A stretch of 64,000 bases of DNA. Source: an uncultured Acidobacteriota bacterium (GTDB lineage: Bacteria > Acidobacteriota > Terriglobia > Terriglobales > SCQP01). Both the position numbers and the translations under genes were made by a program. The notes beneath the pieces were generated by a model. That model did no database searches. It worked only from the letters and a program-made list of their open reading frames with translations, and had not been told where the DNA came from. The stretch covers positions 3,056-67,055 of the forward strand of contig CALEJU010000005.1 of assembly GCA_937898755.1 (NCBI GenBank), given 5' to 3'. Every line of letters starts with the position of its first letter. Within the stretch, counting starts at the first letter, position 1. Of this stretch, positions 5,654 through 32,841 are shown piece after piece.

Positions 5654-7042
5654 TCACAATTCCATGGCGATGTAGTCCACCCGCTGCGCGGCGCCGGCCA
5701 GAGGCGGTAACTCGGCGCGCGAGCCGCAGAATGTCACAGCCAACTCCACCTGCGCCAGACTCAACGTGGCCGCCCGCGTCTGCCCGCCCACTTGCACCAA
5801 GGCCAGGTACTGGAGGATGGGGTACAAGAGCTGCGCCGCTGGGGCGAGCGGAAAGACCGGGCCAGCCGCGGCCGCTGCGTCCGGCTCGTTTCCCGCGACC
5901 GGGTTCAGGCCCTCAAACGTCAACCAGATCTCAGTTTCGGCCAGTTCGGCCACCAGCGAGGCGCAAAGCGTAATGGCGCGCTCTGCCTGGGCATCACTGT
6001 AATCGCCTGCGCCCAGGGCAAAGACGAGGTGCACACGGCGATCCTCTTCGCGGCTGAACTCGCGCACGCGCAAGTGACCGGTCTTGGCGCTCGCCTTCCA
6101 GTGCACCAGGCGGCTGCTGTCGCCCGGCTGCAGGGGCCGGACGCGATACAGATCCTGGCCGGCGCCGGGGCGCGGGCGGACCTGCTCGCCAACCCCGAGC
6201 GGCAGCGTCGTCAGCAGCCGCGCGTCGCGCGCCAGGCTGGGATATACCAAGAGGGATCCACCGCCATCCGCGGCACGAAAGGGACGGGACTTGTCAATGA
6301 GCGCAAAGGGGTAGCGCGTACCCAGCGCAAAGGCGGCGCTGGCGTAGCGTCCCCGTTGCGGAAAGCGCACCGTGCTACACACCGTGGCGCGGCTTCGACG
6401 CGGAACATAGGGAAAGTACGCCGGCTGCACTTCCAGTTCGCCAGAAGCAAGGTCACTGCGCCGTCGACCCCGGAGCCGTCGGCGGCGCGTGCGCAACGGC
6501 GCGCTGAGAGGCACGAGGCGGCGTGCGTTCCCAGTCACGGTCACCGAATAGCTGGGTAGCACCGCTTTTTCGTTCTCAAGCGTCAGTTCAACGGGAGTGT
6601 CCTCCCCGGCGAAGATGTGTGCCGGCATCTGGAAATGCAGCGCCATGCCACTGAGGTTCAGCGCCGAGGCCAAGCCGGAAGTGGCCAGGGCCGCCAGGAA
6701 CGCCGCCACGATGAGGTAGAGCAGGTTGTTGCCCGAGTTGATGGCAGCCACCAACAAAATCAGCAGCGCCACCAGGAACGGCAGCCCGGCGGCAGTAAAG
6801 CGGTATTGGACGCGTCCGCGCATCCAACGTCCCAGAATGCTGCGGCGGAACAGGGGCGGCAGGCTGATCAGGCTGATCACGCCCAGCACAAGCAGGGAGG
6901 CCGCGGCGAGGGCCGCTCGGAGCACTCCGGGAGGTACAAATCCCGCCGCCACGGCCAGCAGAAACGCCCCTCCCAGGCCGGCGCTGACCATGAGCCCGTG
7001 CCGCCAACTCCACTCCTCCACTCGCTTCTCGGCACGTGGCAT
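5654..7042 (-). CDS. DUF58-family protein with N-terminal transmembrane segments
   Basis: LVHWKASAKTGHLRVREF matches the DUF58 hallmark (.DW.ASAR.G.L.V.EF). Three hydrophobic helices lie in the first ~130 aa. Confidence 0.7.
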   Translation of the reverse strand: MPRAEKRVEEWSWRHGLMVSAGLGGAFLLAVAAGFVPPGVLRAALAAASLLVLGVISLISLPPLFRRSILGRWMRGRVQYRFTAAGLPFLVALLILLVAAINSGNNLLYLIVAAFLAALATSGLASALNLSGMALHFQMPAHIFAGEDTPVELTLENEKAVLPSYSVTVTGNARRLVPLSAPLRTRRRRLRGRRRSDLASGELEVQPAYFPYVPRRSRATVCSTVRFPQRGRYASAAFALGTRYPFALIDKSRPFRAADGGGSLLVYPSLARDARLLTTLPLGVGEQVRPRPGAGQDLYRVRPLQPGDSSRLVHWKASAKTGHLRVREFSREEDRRVHLVFALGAGDYSDAQAERAITLCASLVAELAETEIWLTFEGLNPVAGNEPDAAAAAGPVFPLAPAAQLLYPILQYLALVQVGGQTRAATLSLAQVELAVTFCGSRAELPPLAGAAQRVDYIAMEL

Positions 7043-7178
7043 GCGGCCATGCTATCGGAAAAGACGCCGGCACGTCGGCCCCCTCCGCGCGAAACGGCTC
7101 GACTCGGCCGCCCATCGTCCACCGCCCACGTTCTTCCCTCTCTCTCGCTGCGTCTGGTAAACTCGAAATCTCGCGTTG

Positions 7179-7255
7179 GGGCGCCTAGCTCAGTTGGTTA
7201 GAGCGCCGCCTTCACACGGCGGAGGTCATAGGTTCGAGTCCTATGGCGCCCACCA
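7179..7255 (+). tRNA. tRNA-Val (anticodon CAC), CCA encoded
   Basis: GGGCGCC/GGCGCCC acceptor, D-arm GCTCAGTTGGTTAGAGC, anticodon stem CCGCC/GGCGG with loop TTCACAC, T-loop GGTTCGAGTCC. Confidence 0.9.
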
Positions 7256-7317
7256 TGCCTCCCTCTGCCCCGTGGGTGGTCTGCTGCGCGGGGATCGGTG
7301 AGGGGCCGGAGGAGCCT

Positions 7318-7851
7318 ATGCGGATCACGCTCGGGGAACTGGAATTGCACCCGGTTGCGATCAGCACCACCTTCTCTGAGGGCACACTGGACCTCCAGCC
7401 GGCCGAGTGGACCTTGAAAGGGCCGCTCACGGTGACGGGGGAAGCCACCCTGTCGGGCATGGACATCGTGTTGCGACTGCGCCTCGCGGGGCAGGTCACG
7501 GCGCCGTGTGCACGTTGCCTGGAAGAGGTGGTCTTCGACTTGCAGCTTGAGCTGCAGCTGGTCTACCAGCCAGACTCCGAGATGGGCGACGCCCCGGAAG
7601 TCGAGATCCATACCGCCGACACCGAGATCGGGTTTTTCCAGGGCGACGGAGTCGATCTGGAGGATGTGGTCCGTGAGCAGGTGCTCCTGGGGGCGCCCAT
7701 GCGTGCCTTGTGCCGCGAGGCCTGCCAGGGGATTTGTCCGCAGTGCGGGCTGAACCGCAATGCCGGCACCTGTACCTGTGAGCGCGCCGCGGACGCGCGC
7801 TGGGAAGCGCTGGCCCGCTTGCGCGACCTGCCGCAGTCCGGGCGGTCCTGA
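7318..7851 (+). CDS. yceD: DUF177/YceD-family protein (large-subunit rRNA accumulation protein)
   Basis: Sits directly upstream of rpmF as in many bacteria. Cys clusters CARCLEEV and CQGICPQCG. I chose the ATG at 7318 (GGAGG 5-9 nt upstream) because the longer ORF start at 7243 overlaps tRNA-Val. Confidence 0.75.
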   Translation: MRITLGELELHPVAISTTFSEGTLDLQPAEWTLKGPLTVTGEATLSGMDIVLRLRLAGQVTAPCARCLEEVVFDLQLELQLVYQPDSEMGDAPEVEIHTADTEIGFFQGDGVDLEDVVREQVLLGAPMRALCREACQGICPQCGLNRNAGTCTCERAADARWEALARLRDLPQSGRS

Positions 7852-18147: not shown

Positions 18148-18385
18148 TGACAGCTCTCGGCCCAAGCCCGTCGGCCGAAAGAGCAATCAACTAAAATCCA
18201 ACCACCAAAAACTAACAACTCTTCGCTTCGTTCAACCGACAACCGACAACCGACCGAGGCCGAGCTCCGAGGGTCGATTAAACGCCCACCTGACAGCTCC
18301 CGGCCCAAGCCCGTCGGCCGAAAGTGCTATCAAAAATCCAACAACCAAAAACCAACAACTCTTCTCTTCGTTCAACCGACAACCT
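18148..18385. repeat. Two direct copies (~95 nt, period 143 nt) of a composite intergenic module
   Basis: Copy 1 spans 18148..~18250 and copy 2 spans 18291..~18385. Each is TGACAGCTCYCGGCCCAAGCCCGTCGGCCGAAAG + a CA-rich heptad block (AAAATCCAAC...AACAACT) + CTTCKCTTCGTT + CAACCGA heptads. Copy 2 runs up to the GH39 stop codon. Confidence 0.85.
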
Positions 18386-20121: not shown

Positions 20122-20145
20122 CGGTTATCGGTTGTCGGTTGTCGG
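20122..20145 (+). repeat. Tandem heptanucleotides CGGTTAT-CGGTTGT-CGGTTGT-CGG
   Basis: Read directly. The same heptad occurs at 21869..21885 (+), 31645..31675 (+), 18233..18253 (-) and 18373..18384 (-). Confidence 0.9.
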
Positions 20146-20189
20146 CAAGACGAGAACGCGGACGCCACGGGCCGGACGGCGGCATGAAC

Positions 20190-20292
20190 GGTTGTTGGTT
20201 ATTGGTTGTTAGTTGTTGGATTTTAGAGCGCAGCCCATGGAGTTGTGGTTTGGCACGCTGTGCGCCGTGTAGGACAGGCACCCTGTCCCCAA
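20190..20292 (+). repeat. ~100-nt dispersed element, copy A (heptad block + two small palindromes)
   Basis: About 85% identical by eye to the reverse complement of 31706..31806. Exact shared runs are TTGGTTGTTAGTTGTTGGATTTTAGAGC, GTTGTGGTTTGGCAC and GCCGTGTAGGACAGGCA. Confidence 0.85.
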
Positions 20293-20397: not shown

Positions 20398-20677
20398 GAC
20401 AACGAAAGGATGATGGGCAAACCTTTCGTTAGCCAAATCCGAAGCAAAGCATCTTTTCGTTGGCCGCCTGATTCACCGGCCGCCTGGCCCCACTCGATCC
20501 CGCCCTCCGGAGCCCGCGCAGCGGGCGTCCCGCCCGTAGCCTGGGGCGAAATGCCTCGTTCGTGGTGGATAAATTAGACACGAGAGACAACGAAAGGATC
20601 ATGGGCTAAACTTTCGTTAGCTTCATCCGAAGCAAAGGATTTTTCGTTGGCCGCTTCCTTCACGGGCCGCCTTGGCC
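20398..20677 (+). repeat. ~92-nt direct duplication of the Fic 5' region (20398..20489 and 20586..20677)
   Basis: About 87% identity by eye. Each copy contains the inverted repeat AACGAAAG(G)-N12/14-(C)CTTTCGTT. Copy 1 reads TTG GCC GCC TGA (dead start). Copy 2 provides the real Fic TTG start at 20647. Confidence 0.8.
20510..20550 (+). repeat. 41-nt GC-rich repeat, copy 1 (GAGCCCGCGCAGCGGGCGTCCCGCCCGTAGCCTGGGGCGAA)
   Basis: Differs at 1 of 41 positions from 22024..22064. Contains the hairpin GCCCGC-GCA-GCGGGC. Confidence 0.85.
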
Positions 20678-21810
20678 GTTACGTCAGCCAATCCACGGCT
20701 GGGGAGACCGTGCGGGCGTTCGTTCCCCCTCCCCTGCCCCCTTCTCCGGCGGTCGATCTGAGCCGGGTCCAAGCCTTGCTCGAAGATGCGAGTCAGGCGC
20801 TGGGGCGACTCGACGGGCTGACAACGCTCCTGCCTGACCCCTCGCTTTTTATCTACCACTACGTCCGCAAAGAGGCCGTACTTTCGTCGCAAATCGAGGG
20901 CACCCAGTCCTCGCTTTCGGACCTGCTCCTCTTCGAAGATGACGAGGCCCCAGGGGTCCCGCTCGACGATGTGGTCGAGGTCTCCAACTACGTCGCCGCG
21001 CTCGATCATGGATTAAGACGGATTCGAGAAGGGTTTCCGCTTTCGCTCCGCTTGATCAAGGAAATCCACGGCGTGTTGTTGGCGAAGGGACGCGGGAGCG
21101 AGAGGAATCCCGGAGAGTTCCGCAGAAGTCAGAACTGGATTGGGGGCACTCGGCCCGGCAACGCCCTCTTCGTTCCTCCTCCGGCCGAGATGATTCTGGA
21201 GTGCATGGGAGCGCTGGAGACGTTTCTGCATGCCGCGGATCCATCCATGCCGGTCCTGGTAAAGGCGGCGCTGGTCCACGTCCAGTTCGAATCGATCCAC
21301 CCGTTTCTGGACGGCAATGGCCGCTTGGGTCGCCTCCTGATCACGTTTCTCTTGTGTACGTCGGGGATGCTGCGGGAGCCCCTCTTGTACCTGAGCTTAT
21401 ATTTCAAGGCTAATCGACAGAGCTATTACGACCTGCTGAATCGCGTCCGGAGCGAAGGGGATTGGGAACGCTGGGTCGAGTTTTTTCTGGACGGGGTTAA
21501 GCAGACCGCCGAGCAGGCATCCGACTCGGCCCGCCGCATCCTTGACTTGGTTGAAGAAGATCGCCGCAAGATTGAAGAACTGGGTCGTCCTGCCGCAACG
21601 GTGCTGCTCCTCCACTCCTGGCTGCGCCGGAAACCGATCACCTCCATTCCGATGGCGGCCAAGGCGCTCAATCTCTCCGCCCCGACCGTGGGCAAAGCCT
21701 TGGGCCACCTCCAGCGTTTGGACATAGTCCGGGAAACCACTGGCCGGCAGCGCCACCGCTTGTTTGTCTACCAGCGCTACCTCAGCACGCTGAGTGAGGG
21801 AACGGGCTGA
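20647..21810 (+). CDS. Fic-family AMPylase-type protein, class II (N-terminal autoinhibitory helix), C-terminal winged-helix
   Basis: Fic motif HPFLDGNGRLGR. Inhibitory motif (S/T)xxxE(G/N) present as SSQIEG. N-terminal G.YV......G....AFVPPPLP is typical of Fic_N proteins. TTG start. Confidence 0.85.
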   Translation: MAASFTGRLGRYVSQSTAGETVRAFVPPPLPPSPAVDLSRVQALLEDASQALGRLDGLTTLLPDPSLFIYHYVRKEAVLSSQIEGTQSSLSDLLLFEDDEAPGVPLDDVVEVSNYVAALDHGLRRIREGFPLSLRLIKEIHGVLLAKGRGSERNPGEFRRSQNWIGGTRPGNALFVPPPAEMILECMGALETFLHAADPSMPVLVKAALVHVQFESIHPFLDGNGRLGRLLITFLLCTSGMLREPLLYLSLYFKANRQSYYDLLNRVRSEGDWERWVEFFLDGVKQTAEQASDSARRILDLVEEDRRKIEELGRPAATVLLLHSWLRRKPITSIPMAAKALNLSAPTVGKALGHLQRLDIVRETTGRQRHRLFVYQRYLSTLSEGTG

Positions 21811-22023
21811 GAGCATTGCCCCTCCGGAGCCCGCGCGCGCCGAACCGGCGCCAGCCGGTGGACCGCAACGGTTGTCGGTTGTCGGAGAACACCAACACAA
21901 CGCCTCACGTCTCGACGCAACGTGGGCGTTAAACGTGAAGCGCAAAACGTGACGCGTCCGAACTCACAAAACCCCCCGTCGCCCCCCAAACTCTACGCTC
22001 CACGCCTCATGCCCTACTTCGCC

Positions 22024-22789: not shown

Positions 22790-23616
22790 ATGGATTCCAA
22801 TGCGCCTGTCACCTCGTGGGACTTCATGAAGGAGAACTACCGGCCGCAAGACCGAATTGCCATCGTGATCCGCAACCGTGCTGAGGACTACACTCTCCAG
22901 CGGCTGCTGTCGGCGCTGGACGCGCGGCTTCGCCCCGCATCCAGCGCTTCCTGCGCTACGAGAACGCCCACGGCGCCGACATCTACGTATCGATGAACAC
23001 GCTGAAGCCGGATGCCAAGGGCCGGACCAAGGCCGATATCGCCGAAATCCGTCACCTCTACCTGGACCTTGACGAAGACGGCGACCAGCGGTTGGAGCGG
23101 GTTCTCAAGAGCGACAGACTGCCGCAGCCGAACTACGTTCTTGACACGTCGCCCAGCAAGCACCAGGTCATCTGGAAGGTCGAGGGTTTCACGCTGGAGC
23201 AGGCTGAGGCCATGTTGCGCACGATGGCGCGTGAATTTGGTGGCGATCCCGCCGCTACCGATGCCGCCCGCGTACTGCGCTTGCCTGGGCTCCACAACAA
23301 GAAGTTCAGGGAACCGGTCAGCGTCAACGGCAGCAGGCTCTCCGATGCTGTACATGGATCAATAGGGTTCGCCAATTTTGCTGATGTGCCAGGGCGGGAG
23401 CGCTTCTCCACTGGCACGGGCACTGTGTCCAGCGGCCTCCGCCGCGACGGCGGCCCGTTGAGTCAATCCGAGCGGGACTGGGCTTGGGTCCGCGACCAGC
23501 TTCGCGGCGGGGTGACGCCTGAGTTGGTCAAGAAAGCGCTCGCAGAACGGCGGCATGACAAGGCCGATCCGGCATATTATGCCGAGCGGGCCGTTGCTAG
23601 GGCGTTGCATCGATGA
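22790..23616 (+). pseudogene. RepB-like DNA primase domain protein, frameshifted
   Basis: Downstream frame: ...QRFLRYENAHGADIYVSMNTLKPDAKGRTKADIAEIRHLYLDLDEDG...VLDTSPSKHQVIWKV...RVLRLPGLHNKK. The N-terminal ~45 codons are in a different frame (22790..~22930), so one frameshift lies near 22900-22935. Confidence 0.55.
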
Positions 23617-23665: not shown

Positions 23666-24295
23666 TCAGTGACCGCGACCATACTGAGCGCCTCGTCGAA
23701 GTTGGAGATCGACGCCTGTCGAGTTAAAGCGGAACTGGAGCATCGCCGTGCTCACTAGGTATTCTGCGCATGCTTGATCATCGGAAAGTCGTCTGCGTCT
23801 GATGCTGAGAAGAGCCGTCCTCGGTAAGAGCAGACAACCCGAAAGCCAACCTGCCTCGTCTTCCTGATCCTTGTTGTGCGTCCGCAACGCTACGCCGCTT
23901 CCTGGCGCTATGAAGACCAACGATGGCTCATGGTTCAGAATGATATGAGCGACTTCGTGAGCCATACTGCTGCTTTGCCGCGCTTGCGAATGTGCGGAAT
24001 TCAGCACGATTAAATTGTGGCGACCGTCTGTCACCGTGATGGCGGACCATTCCTCGCGATGTATGGACACGAGACGTTCGACAGCGTCGGTCGGAATTTC
24101 CGAAAGGTCCCGAGGCCTTAAGATCGGAACTTTAAGACATGCGGCAATAGCGGCCGAATCCAAGGGCGCGTCCATTGCAACCTGGAGCTTGCGTCTGAAT
24201 TTAGCGGCGGTCTCCTCAGACCAAGTTTTAAACCCACGACGGAACATCAGCTCGCCCATCCCGTACTCTGCGTGCCAGCTCTTTTTGGGCGGCAA
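23666..24295 (-). CDS. capP: ImmA/IrrE-family zinc metallopeptidase (CapP-like)
   Basis: HEXXH motif as HEVAHIILNH. Lies immediately downstream of, and overlapping, the XRE gene. Start uncertain (24295, 24259 or 24247). Confidence 0.75.
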   Translation of the reverse strand: MPPKKSWHAEYGMGELMFRRGFKTWSEETAAKFRRKLQVAMDAPLDSAAIAACLKVPILRPRDLSEIPTDAVERLVSIHREEWSAITVTDGRHNLIVLNSAHSQARQSSSMAHEVAHIILNHEPSLVFIAPGSGVALRTHNKDQEDEAGWLSGCLLLPRTALLSIRRRRLSDDQACAEYLVSTAMLQFRFNSTGVDLQLRRGAQYGRGH

Positions 24296-24608
24296 GAATC
24301 AAAGTGGCCAGATCGCTGGCGGCCTCAGGAGAAAGCGCGGTGCCCGCTCGGAGATGAACCGCAGCGACTATTGGCTCGTCGAAACCGGGGCCGGCGCCAC
24401 TTTTCTGGCTTGACGGCATCTCCAGAATTTCAGCCGGGTCGACTTCCAGCCAAGTGCAGACTTTTCGGAACGTGCTCAGGTCAGGAAGCTTACCCCCCTC
24501 AACCCGCGACAGCGTAGCCGGGCTAATGCCGATTTCAGCGGCGACGTCTCGCACGCCGCGAGCGCCCCTTTTCTCGCGAAGCCGTGCTCCTAGGTGCAAA
24601 AGCGTCAT
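24228..24608 (-). CDS. capH: XRE-family HTH transcriptional regulator (CapH-like)
   Basis: LGARLREKRGARGVRDVAAEIGISPATLSRVEGGK is a Cro/C1-type HTH. GGAGG lies 5 nt before the ATG. The gene is divergent from the CBASS operon. Confidence 0.75.
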   Translation of the reverse strand: MTLLHLGARLREKRGARGVRDVAAEIGISPATLSRVEGGKLPDLSTFRKVCTWLEVDPAEILEMPSSQKSGAGPGFDEPIVAAVHLRAGTALSPEAASDLATLILAAQKELARRVRDGRADVPSWV

Positions 24609-24620
24609 TGGCAGCCTCCC

Positions 24621-24636
24621 GTTTCACTTGTGAAAC
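24621..24636. promoter_or_regulatory. Perfect palindrome GTTTCAC-TT-GTGAAAC, candidate CapH operator
   Basis: Sits 13 nt upstream of the capH ATG and 8 nt upstream of the plus-strand TTGACA. 7-bp arms with no mismatch. Confidence 0.55.
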
Positions 24637-24644
24637 AATATCGT

Positions 24645-24674
24645 TTGACACGAGGATCGTAGTGGCGGTACAGT
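24645..24674 (+). promoter_or_regulatory. Candidate sigma70-type promoter for the CBASS operon (TTGACA-N18-TACAGT)
   Basis: Consensus -35 at 24645..24650. The -10-like hexamer at 24669..24674 matches 4 of 6. Confidence 0.35.
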
Positions 24675-24790
24675 GGCGTTGAGCCCATCACCTGTAAGAC
24701 TAGCACTCTAGGGTGAGAATGGACAGCCCAATCGCCTGCTGGTATCAGGTTTTTCTGAGCCGGCCGGATAGACGCGGGGGAGAGTTCAGA

Positions 24791-25690
24791 ATGTCGAAAC
24801 AGACCGAGAGCATGAACAACGCAGCGGGGGTCGTTTGCCACCGTCGTTTGCCGGATCCCCTCTTCGAGTCGGCGTGGACTTCGATCAAGCTGACGCACGG
24901 CGTCCGGGAACGACTCCTGGCCCAGTCCCTTTTGACGCTTACAGTACGGCAACAGCTCTCCTTCGAGGCGGCACCGTTGCACGGCCTCATCCTCCTTATG
25001 GGCGTGCCAGGGACCGGAAAAACCACGTTGAGCCGCGGCCTCGCCAACCAAGTCGCTCATCGGCTTCCGCATGCCAAGACAACGTACGTCGAGATCGATC
25101 CGCATGCATTAACCAGCTCGGCACTCGGCCACAGCCAACAGGCGGTAGCAAAACTGTTTGAGCACACCATCCCTGAGCTGGCGATGGGCGGCGTCGCCAT
25201 TGTCCTGCTCGACGAGTTGGAGACGCTCGCCGTGTCCCGCCATAAACTCAGCTTGGAAGCCAACCCGATTGACGTGCATCGCGCAACCGATGCCGTACTG
25301 GCGGGCATGGACAGGCTGACCCGCGATCACAGAAATGTTCTATTGATCGGAACTACGAATTTTCCGAAGGCATTGGATCAGGCGGTAATTTCCCGGGCGG
25401 ACCACATCGAGAATATTGGCCTTCCGAACGATGCGGCCCGGCGCGAGATCATCCTGGACACGATCAAGGCCATCGGGTCTGTCTGGAATGGCGTGCGCGC
25501 GATTGAGGCCAATATCACGCGCCTTGCAAAGGCCTGCGATGGGCTTGATGGCCGGCGCATTCGAAAAGAGATTTTCGTGGCCATGGCGTCGGACGTAGAG
25601 ACGGCCAAGGACCCCGGAAAGCTGACCGCGGCGCAAATCGAGTCCGCGTTCCACCGCGCGTTGACAACACAGAAGGAGCTTGCAGAATGA
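24791..25690 (+). CDS. cap6: Trip13/Pch2-like AAA+ ATPase (CBASS Cap6)
   Basis: Walker A GVPGTGKT and Walker B VLLDELE, ~299 aa. Followed by HORMA-size genes, a CD-NTase and NucC. ATG at 24791 has GGAG 8 nt upstream. Confidence 0.8.
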   Translation: MSKQTESMNNAAGVVCHRRLPDPLFESAWTSIKLTHGVRERLLAQSLLTLTVRQQLSFEAAPLHGLILLMGVPGTGKTTLSRGLANQVAHRLPHAKTTYVEIDPHALTSSALGHSQQAVAKLFEHTIPELAMGGVAIVLLDELETLAVSRHKLSLEANPIDVHRATDAVLAGMDRLTRDHRNVLLIGTTNFPKALDQAVISRADHIENIGLPNDAARREIILDTIKAIGSVWNGVRAIEANITRLAKACDGLDGRRIRKEIFVAMASDVETAKDPGKLTAAQIESAFHRALTTQKELAE

Positions 25691-26154
25691 GAGTCCGTCG
25701 CGACATAAGTTCAATCCCGCACCACTCCGCCAGTGAGACCTGGCAGAGCATCATCGATCTTGCAACGGGCCAAGGATCAAAAGATGTCCACCAACTCAAT
25801 GCGGCTGCAGGCGTCATGGCGTCGATCATTGCCGATGAGCACCCGGCGGCCCGAGCCATCATCCTCGAAGGTGTCGGCGCGCAACTGCGAATCTATTGCC
25901 GGTATGGCATGGAAGCCGTTGAGGAAGGCAGCGCAGTGGATCCCCTCACCTGGAACCCTACGGCCGGGGACTGGACGATGCACGTGCCGTGCGATTCGGA
26001 GAATATGGCTTGGGTAAAAGGGTCGCTTTCGAAGACATCGCCGCGTATCAAAATATTCGATGTCGATGAAGCAGACCGCGCCGACGAAGAGCAAGCTGCG
26101 GCAAAGGCCAGTAGCGAAATCGTTGTCGATTGGAATTTTGGAGGGGAACTGTAA
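25687..26154 (+). CDS. 155-aa CBASS accessory protein, possibly a divergent second HORMA (Cap8/HORMA3-like)
   Basis: Its ATG overlaps the cap6 stop (ATGA at 25687-25690) and its stop overlaps the next ATG (TAATG). I recognise no motif, so the assignment rests on size and position only. Confidence 0.4.
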   Translation: MRVRRDISSIPHHSASETWQSIIDLATGQGSKDVHQLNAAAGVMASIIADEHPAARAIILEGVGAQLRIYCRYGMEAVEEGSAVDPLTWNPTAGDWTMHVPCDSENMAWVKGSLSKTSPRIKIFDVDEADRADEEQAAAKASSEIVVDWNFGGEL

Positions 26155-26663
26155 TGGCGACCCAGGCGTATGCCTACGCACGAGCCTTTGCTCAGACTCA
26201 CAGCATTGTGTTCCTGAGCGACAATCTCCGGAACACGCTGCGAGAAGTTATTCGCGAGTATGGGCTTGACCCGAACGCGTTAATGCAGGAGTGGCCTACC
26301 ATTGAACGCGGGATCAGGGTTTGGCTGGGATCGGGCCATCTGAACAAGGTTGTCGTCGAGTTCTTCAGGCCAGGCGCATCGGAGGCCTCGGCACGATGGG
26401 ATCTGCCGGTCCGCTATACGGGCTCGGGCGTAGATGACGATATGTGGCTCGACAAAGCGTACCTTCGGCAACTGATCGTCAAGGCGGCGCGCCCATCGCT
26501 TGATTGCAAATATCGCATCCTTCTCTGTACGGATCCAGGAGCTGCCAGCGTATCGGGCTTCACGGACTGCACATTTCTTTCGACAGGATCGCTTGCGGCG
26601 CGTCATTCCGGCACCGTCATTGCCACTGGTCATATGACCGCCGGCGCAACCTACTGGAGATAA
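26154..26663 (+). CDS. cap7: Bacterial HORMA-domain protein (CBASS Cap7-like)
   Basis: 170 aa. The N-terminal pattern AYAYARAFAQTHSIVFLSDNLRNTLREVI resembles the ...T.THA..IA.K.A.DL... start of bacterial HORMA proteins as I recall it. GGAGGGG precedes the ATG at 26154. Position is adjacent to the cyclase. Confidence 0.55.
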   Translation: MATQAYAYARAFAQTHSIVFLSDNLRNTLREVIREYGLDPNALMQEWPTIERGIRVWLGSGHLNKVVVEFFRPGASEASARWDLPVRYTGSGVDDDMWLDKAYLRQLIVKAARPSLDCKYRILLCTDPGAASVSGFTDCTFLSTGSLAARHSGTVIATGHMTAGATYWR

Positions 26664-26667
26664 TTGC

Positions 26668-27558
26668 ATGTTAACAACAACAGAGGCATTTGAGAAGTTC
26701 AGAAAACGGCTGGAGCTTAGTGAGACAGAACGTCAAGATGCATCTATGCGACAGACCAACGTGCGCGAGTGCATTCGGGGTGGCTTCGATATCGAGACTG
26801 ATTTCCTGTCGGGCTCTTACGGGCGGCACACAAAAACGAAGCCGCTGAAAGATGTAGATGTATTTTTCGTCCTAGGGCAAAAGGAAAAATGGCGCCGCGA
26901 TAAAACCCCCATCGAGATGCTCCGTGCCTTCGAGGCATGCCTCAAGAAACAATTCACAGAGTCGGATCAAATCGAAATCTGTCGGCGAGCGGTTACGGTC
27001 ATATTCGAGAAAAGCTATTATCCGGAGAATCATGACGGGAAGGTCCTGAGTATCGATGCAGTCCCCGCGTTTAAATCCGGGAATCATGAATATGAGATTC
27101 CAGACAAAGTGACGGGGACGTGGATCAAGACGAATCCGGAAAAGCATCAAGCGCAGGCAACCGCTAAGAATAAGGAATTGAATGGCGCTTGGGTTCCTCT
27201 CGTCAAAATGATCAAAGGCTGGAACCGGGCCAATGGCAAGCCCATCAAGCCTTCATTCCTAATCGAAGTTATCGCTGAGGAGCTGATCGAGTCCCCATTC
27301 TCGACCTACCCGGACGAGATCCGCAATTGCTTTGCGGTCATGGAAGCTAACGTCAATCGTACCTGGCCAGATCCAGCAGGGCTCGGGCCGCCGGTGTCCG
27401 ATCAAATGACTCCCGATCTCGTCGCGGCTGCCCAAAAGGCTCTTCAGGAAGCTCAGCGCAAAGCGGCGTTGGCGACGCGCGCACAAGAAACTGGCAGGCA
27501 AGGTGATGCGCTCAGCATCTGGCGCGAAATTCTTGGCGACTATTTCCCATTGTCGTAA
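26668..27558 (+). CDS. cGAS/DncV-like nucleotidyltransferase (CD-NTase, CdnC/CdnD-like)
   Basis: Pol-beta NTase signature GSYGRHTKTKPLKDVDVFFVL (GS...DxD) and third acidic residue in SIDAVPAF. 296 aa. Confidence 0.8.
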   Translation: MLTTTEAFEKFRKRLELSETERQDASMRQTNVRECIRGGFDIETDFLSGSYGRHTKTKPLKDVDVFFVLGQKEKWRRDKTPIEMLRAFEACLKKQFTESDQIEICRRAVTVIFEKSYYPENHDGKVLSIDAVPAFKSGNHEYEIPDKVTGTWIKTNPEKHQAQATAKNKELNGAWVPLVKMIKGWNRANGKPIKPSFLIEVIAEELIESPFSTYPDEIRNCFAVMEANVNRTWPDPAGLGPPVSDQMTPDLVAAAQKALQEAQRKAALATRAQETGRQGDALSIWREILGDYFPLS

Positions 27559-27569
27559 CGGAGGCAAAA

Positions 27570-28289
27570 ATGAATGACTGGTCGCTGGCGAAATTATTGG
27601 CCGGGCTTCATGATGACATTGAGGGGCGGCTTTCAATCGCCCGCAACGCCATGGGGCATCCTGTAGCAAAAGGCGACGCGAGCGAAGAGGTGTGGCTGGA
27701 TCTTCTGAAGACCTACCTTCCTCAGCGGTATCAAGCCGCTAAAGCTTTCGTTGTGGACAGCACCGGAGCCTTTAGCGAGCAGATCGATGTCCTCGTGTTC
27801 GACCGTCAATACTCACCTTTTATCTTCAGATACAATGGCCAAAGCATTGTCCCCGCTGAAAGCGTTTATGCCGCGTTCGAGGCCAAGCAGACCATCAACG
27901 CGAGCCTGGTGAAATATGCACAAGACAAAGTGGCGAGCGTGCGCAGACTGCATCGAACAAGCCTTCCAATTCCACACGCTGGTGGTGAGTATCCGGCCAA
28001 GGTTCCACGCGACATTCTGGGAGGCTTCTTGTCATTTGATAGTGATTGGAGCCCTCCGCTTGGCGTGTCGCTCATCGATGCACTTCGCGGCAGCACATTA
28101 GAGAGCCGCCTCGATTTAGGATGCGTTGCTGCACACGGCATATTTTGGCGTGGAGTCGACAATTTTTTTTCGGTCCAGCCCGAAGGTAAGCCGGCTACAG
28201 CGTTTCTCTTCGAATTGATTGCGCGGCTACAGAGTGTGGCCACCGTCCCCATGATCGACATCCGCGCATATGCTAAATGGCTGGAATAG
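27570..28289 (+). CDS. nucC: NucC-type cyclic-oligonucleotide-activated DNA endonuclease (CBASS effector)
   Basis: PD-(D/E)xK-like QIDVLVFD ... VYAAFEAKQ. Blocks DWSLAKLLAGLHDDI, KGDASEEVW, DRQYSPFIF, SVRRLHRTSLPIPHAGGEYPAK and KPATAFLFELIARLQ are very close to my memory of E. coli MS115-1 NucC. GGAGG RBS. Confidence 0.8.
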   Translation: MNDWSLAKLLAGLHDDIEGRLSIARNAMGHPVAKGDASEEVWLDLLKTYLPQRYQAAKAFVVDSTGAFSEQIDVLVFDRQYSPFIFRYNGQSIVPAESVYAAFEAKQTINASLVKYAQDKVASVRRLHRTSLPIPHAGGEYPAKVPRDILGGFLSFDSDWSPPLGVSLIDALRGSTLESRLDLGCVAAHGIFWRGVDNFFSVQPEGKPATAFLFELIARLQSVATVPMIDIRAYAKWLE

Positions 28290-28299
28290 CCGACCGAAT

Positions 28300-28873
28300 G
28301 ATTGTGAACGCTGGTCGGGTGCCCAGCCCTGAAAATGGAAACCCTCAACTACCGGTAAATCAGCTTTGACACCGCCCAAGTCGTCCCCGGGCTGGCCCTC
28401 CAGGCCAGGTTCTTCGAGACCGGCCCTTATCCCTATATCGACGGTGACCTGCCTCCTATTTCCGCACAGCGCAATGCCCGGTGTAGAAGATGTCCCGGGG
28501 TGGGGGGAGGATTCGAAGATTAATTTAATTGGCTGGACACTTTGGATGGTTCCCATCGCCAAGGTGGGTAAGCGCTGGGCTTTGTAAAAACCTTCCGTTA
28601 AGTTTACTTACCTGCAACTGCCTCCGGCACACTTTTGCCAGCCGGCTAACCATGGCTGGTGTTGGCCTGCGAGAGGTGCAAGAATTGATGGGTCACAAGA
28701 CCATAGCCATGACGTGCCGCTACAGCCATCTCGCGCCGGATCACCAGTTGGCGGCAGTGGAGCGGCTGGGGAGCATCCCGGCGATGCCAACAGCCACCAG
28801 AACAGCCACCGAAGGTTTCGAGCCCTCCGGCTTGCAGTCTTCTGCTGCTGGTCAAGTCCTTGTGGTGCAGTGA
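28300..28873 (+). pseudogene. Tyrosine recombinase (integrase) relic; only the C-terminal catalytic part is in frame
   Basis: 28529..28873 encodes ...CLRHTFASRLTMAGVGLREVQELMGHKTIAMTCRYSHLAPDH (R-H-x-x-R ... Y region). Upstream sequence shows only broken integrase-like traces with stops. Confidence 0.65.
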
Positions 28874-28877
28874 TTTA

Positions 28878-28950
28878 GCGTCTTTTCGGGGCCATAGCTC
28901 AATGGTTAGAGCAGCGGACTCATAATCCGTCGCGTGCAGGTTCGACTCCT
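28878..28950 (+). tRNA. tRNA-Met (anticodon CAT; could be tRNA-Ile2 if lysidinylated), CCA not encoded
   Basis: GGGGCCA/TGGCCCC acceptor, GCTCAATGGTTAGAGC D-arm, anticodon stem GCGGA/TCCGT with loop CTCATAA, T-arm GCAGGTTCGACTCCTGC, discriminator A followed by CTG. Confidence 0.85.
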
Positions 28951-29000
28951 GCTGGCCCCACTGCTTCCAAAGGCCGCAAGCGGAAAGCCGAAGACGACGT

Positions 29001-31644: not shown

Positions 31645-31806
31645 CGGTTTTCGGTTGTCGGTTGTCGGTTGTCGGCAACACAAACGCCGGCGAGCTGAGT
31701 GCCACCCGGGACAGGCAGCGTGCCTGTCCTACACGGCACACGGTGTGCCAAACCACAACGCTAATGGGCGGGGCTCTAAAATCCAACAACTAACAACCAA
31801 CAACCG
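31645..31806. repeat. Composite ~160-nt element: CGGTTKT heptads (31645..31675) + two palindromes + CA-rich heptads (31778..31806); includes copy B of the ~100-nt element
   Basis: The outer blocks are complementary. Mismatches are C-A on the plus RNA but G-U on the minus RNA. Inner palindromes are GGACAGGCA-GCG-TGCCTGTCC and GGCACAC-G-GTGTGCC. Confidence 0.85.
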
Positions 31807-31836: not shown

Positions 31837-32841
31837 CTACCGTTCTTTAAACAACGCCTTCGGCAGCATCATGTGGACGCCGACGTGGGTGTCGACCAGT
31901 TGCGTGATGTGCAGGTTGCCGGCCACGCTGCAGAGCATGTAGGCGTCGGTGCGGGAGAGGTGCTTGGTGGCGACCAGGAAGTCGATCATCTCTTCGGCGG
32001 CGTAGCGGGTAGCCCGCCCGAGATCGTCGTCGAAGCCCATGCTGATGTAGTCGGTCGGGGTCTCGGCCCGCGGCCAGCGCTGCTCGGTGTGTTTCAGCAG
32101 CTCAAGGCGGAAGGTCCCGCGCAGTGAGGTTTCAAGGGCCGTGATGTCAATCTCGCCGTCCCCTTGGGCGGCGTGACCGTCCCCGATCTCAAGCAACGCG
32201 CCCGGCGCAAAGACCGGGAGATACAGCGTGCTGCCCGCCACCAGCTCGCGGTTGTCCATGTTGCCGCCGTGCATCCACGGTGGAACGGAGCTGTAGCGTC
32301 CCGCCGAGGGCGGCGGCGCGTCGCCGATGCTGCCGAAGAAGGGCCGCAGCGGCACCTCGATGCCGGGGGCGAACTCCGCCACCCCCCGCTTCCAGTCCAA
32401 CGGAATGATGCGCATGGTGCCGTATGGATAGTCATGGGTCAGGAAACCACGGCCCACGCCAAAGGCGTTGTAGGCATAGTCGATGCGCGGCTCGATCTTC
32501 TCGATGTGGACCACCAGCGTATCGCCGGGTTCCGCGCCCTCGACGAAAATGGGGCCGGTCAGGATGTGGCCTCCGGGCCCTTTATCGGTGACCTGATCGT
32601 AGACGGCGCGCAACTCCGGCTCGACCCGGGCCGGCGCGAGGCCCGCGCCCTCCAGCCCCTTGGGGCTGTTGGTAATCAGGGTCTCGACGACCACGGTTGC
32701 GCCGGCGGGGACGCGCAGCACCGGCTTGGCCTGCGACCAGTAATAGCCCCACGCCACCGTCGTCGGTCCCACCGCAAGGTGGACTGGTGACTGGGCGACG
32801 GCGAGCGATGCGGCAAGGACGAGGAGCGAAGCACGCAGCAT
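31837..32841 (-). CDS. Acetamidase/formamidase-family amidohydrolase, secreted
   Basis: Signal peptide MLRASLLVLAASLAVAQS. Blocks GGHILTGPIFVEGAEPGD, GGNMDN and LEIGDGHAAQGDGE are typical of the FmdA/AmdA family. Confidence 0.75.
   Translation of the reverse strand: MLRASLLVLAASLAVAQSPVHLAVGPTTVAWGYYWSQAKPVLRVPAGATVVVETLITNSPKGLEGAGLAPARVEPELRAVYDQVTDKGPGGHILTGPIFVEGAEPGDTLVVHIEKIEPRIDYAYNAFGVGRGFLTHDYPYGTMRIIPLDWKRGVAEFAPGIEVPLRPFFGSIGDAPPPSAGRYSSVPPWMHGGNMDNRELVAGSTLYLPVFAPGALLEIGDGHAAQGDGEIDITALETSLRGTFRLELLKHTEQRWPRAETPTDYISMGFDDDLGRATRYAAEEMIDFLVATKHLSRTDAYMLCSVAGNLHITQLVDTHVGVHMMLPKALFKER

Follow-up and report, generated by a model that had tools for sequence, protein, structure and literature searches.

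A probable two-HORMA type III CBASS with a NucC effector and a divergent CapH/CapP-type regulator pair on a decayed island of a Terriglobales-like acidobacterium

A stretch of 64,000 nucleotides (nt) from an uncultured Acidobacteriota bacterium (contig CALEJU010000005.1 of assembly GCA_937898755.1; hereafter the window, with positions counted from its first letter) carries at 23666-28289 a set of genes that resembles a type III CBASS (a system of antiphage signalling by cyclic oligonucleotides), in which the operon opens with a Trip13-like ATPase and the oligonucleotide cyclase stands fourth. The locus raises the question of whether this order marks a rearranged variant, as an initial annotation of the DNA had supposed, or is the normal arrangement of a known subclass. 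Based on sequence comparison, we consider it very likely that the locus holds a complete system of the two-HORMA (Pseudomonas aeruginosa ATCC27853/CdnD) subclass of type III CBASS with a NucC effector, lying on a decayed, horizontally acquired island of a Terriglobales-like acidobacterium behind a divergent CapH/CapP-type regulator pair.

Seven intact genes lie within 23666-28289, comprising five core genes on the plus strand and two divergent regulator genes on the minus strand. The five plus-strand genes (24791-28289) are translationally coupled and encode a Trip13/Pch2-like AAA+ ATPase (Cap6; 24791-25690, 299 amino acids (aa), ATG start), HORMA3 (Cap8; 25687-26154, 155 aa), HORMA2 (Cap7; 26154-26663, 169 aa), a CdnD-type cGAS/DncV-like nucleotidyltransferase (CD-NTase), which is the CBASS oligonucleotide cyclase (26668-27558, 296 aa), and the NucC endonuclease effector (27570-28289, 239 aa). 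The Trip13 open reading frame (ORF) as listed also has an upstream extension to a GTG at 24713. Trip13 and HORMA3 are joined by an ATGA (25687-25690) and HORMA3 and HORMA2 by a TAATG (26152-26156), gaps of 4 nt and 11 nt precede CdnD and NucC, respectively, and a GGAG-type Shine-Dalgarno sequence is found 5′ of every core gene start. All five core ORFs are full length relative to their homologues, and the G+C content of the operon is 0.52-0.60 compared with about 0.65 in the flanks. The initial annotation had described these junctions correctly (ATGA at 25687, TAATG at 26152, gaps of 4-11 nt), and every motif that it quoted is present (GVPGTGKT, VLLDELE, GSYGRHT, DVDVF, SIDAVP, QIDVLVFD, VYAAFEAKQ and HEVAH); its gene placement and its sizes of 155 and 239 aa also hold, whereas the protein it gave as 170 aa has 169.

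Proteins were identified using PADLOC, Pfam and NCBIfam profiles together with sequence matches to the PDB. Profile searches with all five core proteins, as the initial annotation had proposed, gave strong matches (E values from 1e-40 to 1e-114), which for sequence matches lie far beyond chance. The first gene matches the PADLOC TRIP13 profile (3e-112) and Pfam AAA (2e-21), and encodes a Walker A motif beginning at residue 71 (G71VPGTGKT) and a Walker B motif at 139 (LLDELE). Its best PDB sequence matches are eukaryotic PCH-2/TRIP13 proteins (6e-29), and the Trip13 proteins of two-HORMA operons likewise resemble eukaryotic PCH-2/TRIP13 best (Ye et al., bioRxiv 10.1101/694695). The two HORMA proteins belong to two diverged families, HORMA2/Cap7 and HORMA3/Cap8. 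HORMA3 is recognised by the PADLOC HORMA profile (3e-44) and by a precomputed Pfam assignment (PF27322, Cap8), and matches a P. aeruginosa protein in PDB entries 6p8p and 6p8s (2e-22) that is named HORMA1 in the preprint describing that system (Ye et al., bioRxiv 10.1101/694695). HORMA3 has the role of scaffold and is reported to be locked in an open state. HORMA2 has matches to Pfam bacHORMA_2 (2e-38), the PADLOC HORMA profile (7e-40) and P. aeruginosa HORMA2 in PDB entries 6p8r, 6p8s and 6p8u (4e-29), and by analogy would be the peptide-binding activator of the cyclase.

The cyclase is supported by PADLOC (9e-114), Pfam SMODS (1e-18) and the NCBIfam equivalog CBASS_cyclase_b (287 bits, cutoff 200), and aligns with CdnD of P. 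aeruginosa ATCC27853 (PDB 6p8u) at 1e-67 and 44% identity. Its active-site residues G49, S50, D62, D64 and D130, of the Pol-beta type (GS...DxD...D), are conserved in alignment with P. aeruginosa CdnD. This clade D05 enzyme is the closest solved structure, which is a sequence match rather than a phylogenetic placement. NucC is recognised by the PADLOC NucC effector profile (2e-103) and by DUF6602 (1e-29), Pfam's family for the NucC protein. The initial annotation had noted its likeness to E. coli MS115-1 NucC, and this is borne out by PDB entry 6p7o (3e-102, 68% identity) with the same functional residues in both proteins. The active site (IDx30EAK; I72-D73...E104-A105-K106), the pocket for cyclic tri-AMP (cAAA) formed by R53, Y81, T225 and V226 (the last two being T226 and V227 in the reference numbering) and the gate-loop latch (H136, Y141) are all kept, so that 11 of 11 functional residues are conserved. 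Loss of catalytic Asp or Glu residues, which the initial annotation had named as evidence that would count against its assignment, was checked by alignment, and those of both cyclase and NucC are conserved. Its identification of the genes as a type III CBASS under HORMA/Trip13 control, intact and with both CD-NTase and NucC, is therefore upheld by profile and structure-database matches.

To place the gene order, we compared 93 related loci, comprising 6 loci from Acidobacteriota metagenome-assembled genomes (MAGs; GTDB), 7 annotated plasmids of Alpha- and Betaproteobacteria, and 80 metagenome loci fetched using the crystallised P. aeruginosa CdnD sequence as query, with genes mapped by tblastn. 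The complete order Trip13-HORMA3-HORMA2-CdnD-effector, the effector being NucC or a SAVED protein, is present in 70 loci, and the remaining 23, which contig ends truncate, are consistent with it; no deviation from the Trip13-first order was found among the 93. Three of these loci (L046, L047 and L074), whose CdnD shows 100% identity to that of the P. aeruginosa archetype, have the same order as the window. We took the P. aeruginosa order empirically from these loci because a literature search gave no text that states it. The RefSeq annotation of the one-HORMA E. coli system instead reads capP, capH and, divergently, cyclase, cap7, cap6, nucC. The initial annotation had called the window's arrangement non-archetypal, and a rearranged system whose Trip13-first order implies a distinct regulatory logic would account for the difference from this E. 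coli MS115-1-type operon (cyclase-cap7-cap6-nucC). That explanation is hardly credible, since the order does not vary within the two-HORMA subclass (shared by 70 of 70 complete loci, with no exceptions among the 93), including loci with the crystallised P. aeruginosa CdnD. The order is therefore the archetype of the subclass and not a variant of it, and the cyclase-first archetype with which the initial annotation had compared it applies to the E. coli one-HORMA subclass but not to the two-HORMA subclass. Gene order, as read from these loci, cleanly separates the type III subclasses, with Trip13 first in two-HORMA and the cyclase first in one-HORMA operons.

The system in the window belongs to a large family, with 3615 protein clusters found at E <= 1e-20. 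Its closest relatives share 65-78% of their amino acids with it, the nearest CBASS relatives all being Acidobacteriota MAGs at 76-78% identity, and each of the window's CBASS proteins forms a singleton 90% cluster that occurs on only two contigs. A scan of viral contigs with the P. aeruginosa CdnD sequence returned no match. Two distant loci carry paired CD-NTase-like genes, adjacent in L007 (3053-4777) and about 0.6 kb apart in L027 (3806-6031), and neither has a Trip13, HORMA or NucC match to the window proteins.

Divergently from the operon, the minus strand encodes a helix-turn-helix (HTH) protein and a metallopeptidase. The first is a CapH-like XRE-family HTH repressor (24228-24608, 126 aa) with matches to Pfam HTH_31 (4e-9), HTH_26 and HTH_3, and its gene overlaps the peptidase gene by 20 nt. 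Its best PDB sequence matches are weak and are to XRE regulators, some of them entries named DdrOC, DdrO being the substrate of IrrE (Lau et al., bioRxiv 10.1101/2022.04.27.489752), and its C-terminal ~60 residues, the part in which CapH carries an oligomerisation domain with the cleavage site, match no solved structure. The second is a short, CapP-like zinc metallopeptidase of the ImmA/IrrE type (M78; 23666-24247, 193 aa). The longest ORF spans 23666-24295 and reaches a TTG at 24295, but the true start is assigned to the ATG at 24247 because all 31 aligned homologues begin at MFRRGF. The protein matches Pfam Peptidase_M78 (4e-15) and the PADLOC capP profile (3e-10), the latter over profile positions 20-120 of 242, which correspond to the peptidase part. 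The HExxH motif (H97/E98/H101) and E129/E131 are invariant in the same 31 homologues. The family, of about 191 aa, comprises at least 214 homologue clusters, and among the best 120 of the 214 lengths range from 188 to 206 aa, nearly all 188-198. At every homologous locus examined, an HTH gene of 126-128 aa precedes the short peptidase. In the Joint Genome Institute gene calls for the metagenome contig that holds the window's DNA (metagenome 3300022557, contig Ga0212123_10000455, 134,691 bp) the M78 peptidase gene is omitted (L031, ~6999-7628), despite its Pfam match and more than 200 homologue clusters.

Since a sequence search of solved structures gave no match to the peptidase at E <= 1, we turned to an AlphaFold2 model and a fold search against the PDB. 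The model (pLDDT 86.6) consists only of the peptidase fold and a short helical tail, and its best PDB folds are Deinococcus IrrE/PprI at a probability of 1.0, although with a TM score of ~0.5 and E of ~4e-3 these matches are weak. With only 193 aa, the protein cannot accommodate the central HTH domain and the C-terminal GAF domain found in characterised CapP (as in Thauera) and in IrrE. There is also no Cys between the HEVAH and EDEA motifs and hence no cysteine-switch loop, an optional feature that no more than 33% of CapPs possess (Lau et al., bioRxiv 10.1101/2022.04.27.489752). The peptidase is thus CapP-like in position and catalytic domain, but does not have the full architecture of characterised CapP. 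The divergent XRE HTH and ImmA/IrrE genes reported by the initial annotation are confirmed on the minus strand by HTH and Peptidase_M78 profile matches, and its term CapH/CapP-like fits the divergent position with a shared promoter region and the peptidase domain, but not the HTH and GAF domains of CapP.

The control region between capH and trip13 spans 182 bp (24609-24790) and contains blocks that are conserved with the equivalent regions of homologous pairs facing other cargo operons. We aligned the window with three such loci (L039, L041 and L043). A perfect palindrome, GTTTCAC-TT-GTGAAAC (24621-24636), lies 8 bp upstream of a -35 element and is a candidate CapH operator; the arrangement resembles that of E. 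coli, where the 22-bp site bound by CapH is also located upstream of the -35 (Lau et al., bioRxiv 10.1101/2022.04.27.489752). It has a single match in the 64 kb, where 0.13 are expected allowing up to two mismatches, and its position and TCA-N4-TGA core are conserved in L039, L041 and L043. An exact search for the palindrome in other loci found only the window's own contig; the relatives are degenerate, and conservation is visible only in alignment. Downstream on the plus strand is a putative sigma-70-like promoter of the CBASS operon (24645-24674; TTGACA, 18 nt, TACAGT), identified by consensus match only (10 of 12), in which TTTGACA is invariant in the four-locus alignment. A second conserved block with invariant columns in the same alignment (24688-24718, minus strand; -35 TTCTCA, -10 TAGTCT) is tentatively the capH promoter, which imperfect TCA-N4-TGA half-sites would overlap.

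Gene content, order, coupling, homology and residue conservation are what the locus itself displays, and from characterised homologues we infer the following mechanism. The HTH repressor would bind the palindromic operator or operators in the control region and hold the operon low, while a Trip13 hexamer would keep HORMA2 open and dissociated, leaving the cyclase off. A stress signal, probably DNA damage, is predicted to activate the M78 peptidase, leading to cleavage of the repressor and derepression of the operon. Binding of a peptide would close HORMA2 onto CdnD, with HORMA3 as scaffold, and CdnD would then make cAAA from ATP. This step is modelled on P. aeruginosa CdnD, a cAAA-producing enzyme that depends on HORMA2 and that Trip13 inhibits (Ye et al., bioRxiv 10.1101/694695). 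The activator of NucC is cAAA; in the window's system, it would fill the three-fold pocket of NucC trimers, which would assemble into hexamers that cut DNA non-specifically and likely kill the cell ahead of phage release (abortive infection).

Do the two divergent genes belong to the CBASS, or do they merely adjoin it? A published survey found CapH/CapP in an upstream, divergent position at 408 CBASS systems, type III (2H) among them (Lau et al., bioRxiv 10.1101/2022.04.27.489752), and we detected a divergent HTH and M78 pair or fusion at approximately 30 of the 93 two-HORMA loci, in three forms. In the first, a peptidase of ~290 aa accompanies a separate HTH gene, for example in Polaromonas, Rhizobium and Agrobacterium. 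In the second, an HTH-M78 fusion (~355-377 aa) is followed by a small gene of 160-175 aa (L001 3444-5064, L002 3466-5033, L006 3263-4886, L034 1385-2939 from Sulfitobacter, and L038 838-2432); Methylobacterium is among the bacteria with this form. The small gene has a weak PIN match in L034 only and no Pfam match in the others, and the arrangement is probably the equivalent of the 'PIN toxin / HTH antitoxin' pair shown beside the P. aeruginosa operon. The third form is a short pair as in the window, found at L111 in the same position ahead of a two-HORMA CBASS, with a peptidase 39% identical to that of the window. On Rhizobium and Agrobacterium plasmids a small DUF2188 gene lies between capH and trip13 (L036 2379-2615; L037 2353-2589), DUF2188 having been tied to CapH/CapP-associated operons (Lau et al., bioRxiv 10.1101/2022.04.27.489752), and Polaromonas has a hypothetical gene of 73 aa there (L033 2875-3096). 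The window has no gene in this interval.

Close homologues of the window's pair also stand in front of other cargo. In L039 (3010-5207) the pair divergently faces an operon of E1/E2 (ThiF) and JAB genes, and in L043 (2576-5485) a Bil-like operon (DUF2604, Y4jH-like E2, JAB, E1) with DUF3892 and TIR/SEFIR genes nearby. A link of CapH/CapP to ubiquitin-like operons has already been noted (Lau et al., bioRxiv 10.1101/2022.04.27.489752). In L041, no recognisable defence cargo lies alongside. This last locus would suit an explanation in which the HTH and short peptidase genes are the leftover ImmR/ImmA-type immunity or excision switch of the decayed element and simply adjoin the CBASS cargo, as would the short, GAF-less peptidase, which is unlike the three-domain CapP and IrrE, the RepB-primase and integrase remnants on the flanks described below, and the fact that ImmR/ImmA pairs of this kind govern the excision of integrative and conjugative elements and prophages. 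We nevertheless regard a leftover switch as unlikely. The pair and trip13 point directly away from each other across just 182 bp, about a third of two-HORMA loci carry an HTH and M78 pair there, and the short pair of L111 occupies the same position before another two-HORMA CBASS. Moreover, homologous pairs divergently face other defence-type operons with conserved promoter/operator blocks and share no mobility genes. Assignment of the pair to the CBASS as its CapH/CapP-type regulators is thus preferred. A bolder proposal, possible but rather doubtful at present, is that the ~191-aa CapP-like peptidase and 126-aa HTH protein, lacking a GAF domain, form a distinct portable regulator cassette that is abundant in Acidobacteriota metagenomes, has its own conserved bidirectional promoter/operator (TCA-N4-TGA) and fronts varied defence operons (two-HORMA CBASS in the window and L111, E1/E2 and JAB in L039, and Bil-like in L043). 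If so, the absence of a GAF domain means that the cassette may answer a signal other than the single-stranded DNA that activates characterised CapP.

The operon and its regulators lie on a low-GC island at roughly 20.2-28.9 kb. The initial annotation had described a dead mobile element around an intact module, and this is what we observe, since only a stub of the integrase is left and the genes for the RepB primase and DUF4919 are cut short, while the seven genes are intact. Specifically, the RepB-type primase gene is truncated at its N-terminus (22993-23616, plus strand; Pfam RepB_primase profile positions 50-150 of 186) and is convergent with the peptidase gene, and only a C-terminal remnant of a tyrosine recombinase remains (28529-28873, plus strand; Pfam Phage_integrase profile positions 127-170 of 172). 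Directly after this remnant, a tRNA-Met (CAT; 28888-28961, plus strand) called by ARAGORN and matching the Rfam tRNA model with 74 bits borders the island. Its 5′ end, and not its 3′ end, faces the island and the integrase stub, which is unexpected for classical 3′-end tRNA insertion, and no att-type direct repeats of at least 14 nt connect it with the island's far end. When 19.5-29.5 kb was scanned with Rfam, this tRNA was the only RNA found; a sub-threshold 'Plastid-ycf2' match falls on the antisense strand of the tRNA-Met bases and looks like chance. The acidobacterial host proposed by the initial annotation is in line with a flanking host gene (31837-32841) that clusters at >=90% identity with a Terriglobales MAG protein, from which the host appears to be Terriglobales-like.

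The state of the island also raises the possibility that the operon is a silent relic that, for all its intact sequence, has lost expression or function, as the remainder of the island has. The truncated integrase, primase and DUF4919 neighbours would fit, as would the confinement of each protein to a singleton 90% cluster on two contigs. We judge this quite improbable given that the five ORFs are full length with overlapping or closely set starts and Shine-Dalgarno sequences, that all checked catalytic and ligand residues are conserved, and that the regulator pair and promoter-like elements are intact. An intact two-HORMA CBASS under CapH/CapP-type control thus remains the reading that we favour, and several points weigh against it. 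With decay under way in the surrounding island, the operon may itself be in the process of being lost. The operator and promoters are predictions at the level of consensus sequences. Finally, as the peptidase is without GAF and HTH domains, sensing of single-stranded DNA or DNA damage is not simply transferable to it from characterised CapP.

Other features of the island and its surroundings are as follows. An intact Fic/DOC gene (20647-21810, 387 aa) encodes Fic_N and Fic domains with the motif HPFLDGNGRLGR, as well as an HTH-like region at its C-terminus; it shares the island with the CBASS and may be a toxin or defence gene in its own right. On its flanks and ahead of it lie GC-rich repeats of 45-59 nt with 84-93% identity (pairs 20510-20555/22024-22069, 21826-21870/22082-22126 and 20398-20490/20586-20677). 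One 46-nt pair brackets the gene at a distance of 1514 nt, and the repeats could represent a REP/MITE-like element (repetitive extragenic palindrome or miniature inverted-repeat transposable element) or the boundary of a small cassette. Intergenic arrays of the heptamer CGGTTGT on both strands (18229-18252, 20122-20145, 20189-20205, 21869-21885, 31645-31675 and 31790-31806; 12 matches compared with 0.33 expected) yield a recurring 'PTTDNR' peptide in spurious ORFs and look like a genome-specific intergenic repeat family.

The importance of the locus beyond annotation is small; a family with thousands of members gains one more intact two-HORMA CBASS-NucC, this one from an uncultured acidobacterium that is Terriglobales-like. 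Two by-products may be of wider use, namely gene order as a marker that divides the two type III subclasses, and a short, GAF-less CapH/CapP-like cassette that could serve in finding out where in CapP the activating signal is sensed.

Among known systems, the closest is the two-HORMA type III CBASS of P. aeruginosa ATCC27853 (Ye et al., bioRxiv 10.1101/694695), which has the same five components in the same order. Its solved proteins are matched by the window's CdnD (1e-67), HORMA2 (4e-29) and HORMA3 (2e-22), and both systems have a eukaryote-like Trip13 and a NucC effector, with an intact cAAA pocket in the window. However, the regulatory proteins and the cyclase of the two systems are just 30-45% identical, and the window's host is acidobacterial. 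The P. aeruginosa locus is also described with an HTH and PIN pair and an SMC-like gene, whereas in the window the HTH protein and the short peptidase are encoded separately and there is neither a PIN nor an SMC gene. The one-HORMA CBASS of the E. coli MS115-1 type, which is accompanied by CapH/CapP (Lau et al., bioRxiv 10.1101/2022.04.27.489752), has a NucC that is 68% identical with the same functional residues, and shares with the window a divergent HTH and M78 pair with a common promoter region and an operator (a candidate one in the window) upstream of the -35. It differs in its single HORMA protein, cyclase-first order and CdnC-type cyclase, and its CapP, at 288 aa, has the extra HTH and GAF domains described for CapP, both absent from the 193-aa peptidase of the window. 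For the regulators, Deinococcus IrrE/PprI-DdrO provides the best fold matches of the peptidase and, through DdrOC entries, some of the weak best matches of the HTH protein. Deinococcus IrrE-DdrO and Bacillus ImmA-ImmR follow the same two-gene repressor-peptidase logic as the window's pair, but IrrE has a GAF domain, which the window's peptidase is without, and ImmA/ImmR control excision of an element rather than a defence operon. By this comparison, the window holds an ordinary intact copy of a well-studied system, in which CapH/CapP beside a two-HORMA CBASS is already published and common, and its mild peculiarity is confined to a regulator peptidase without a GAF domain.

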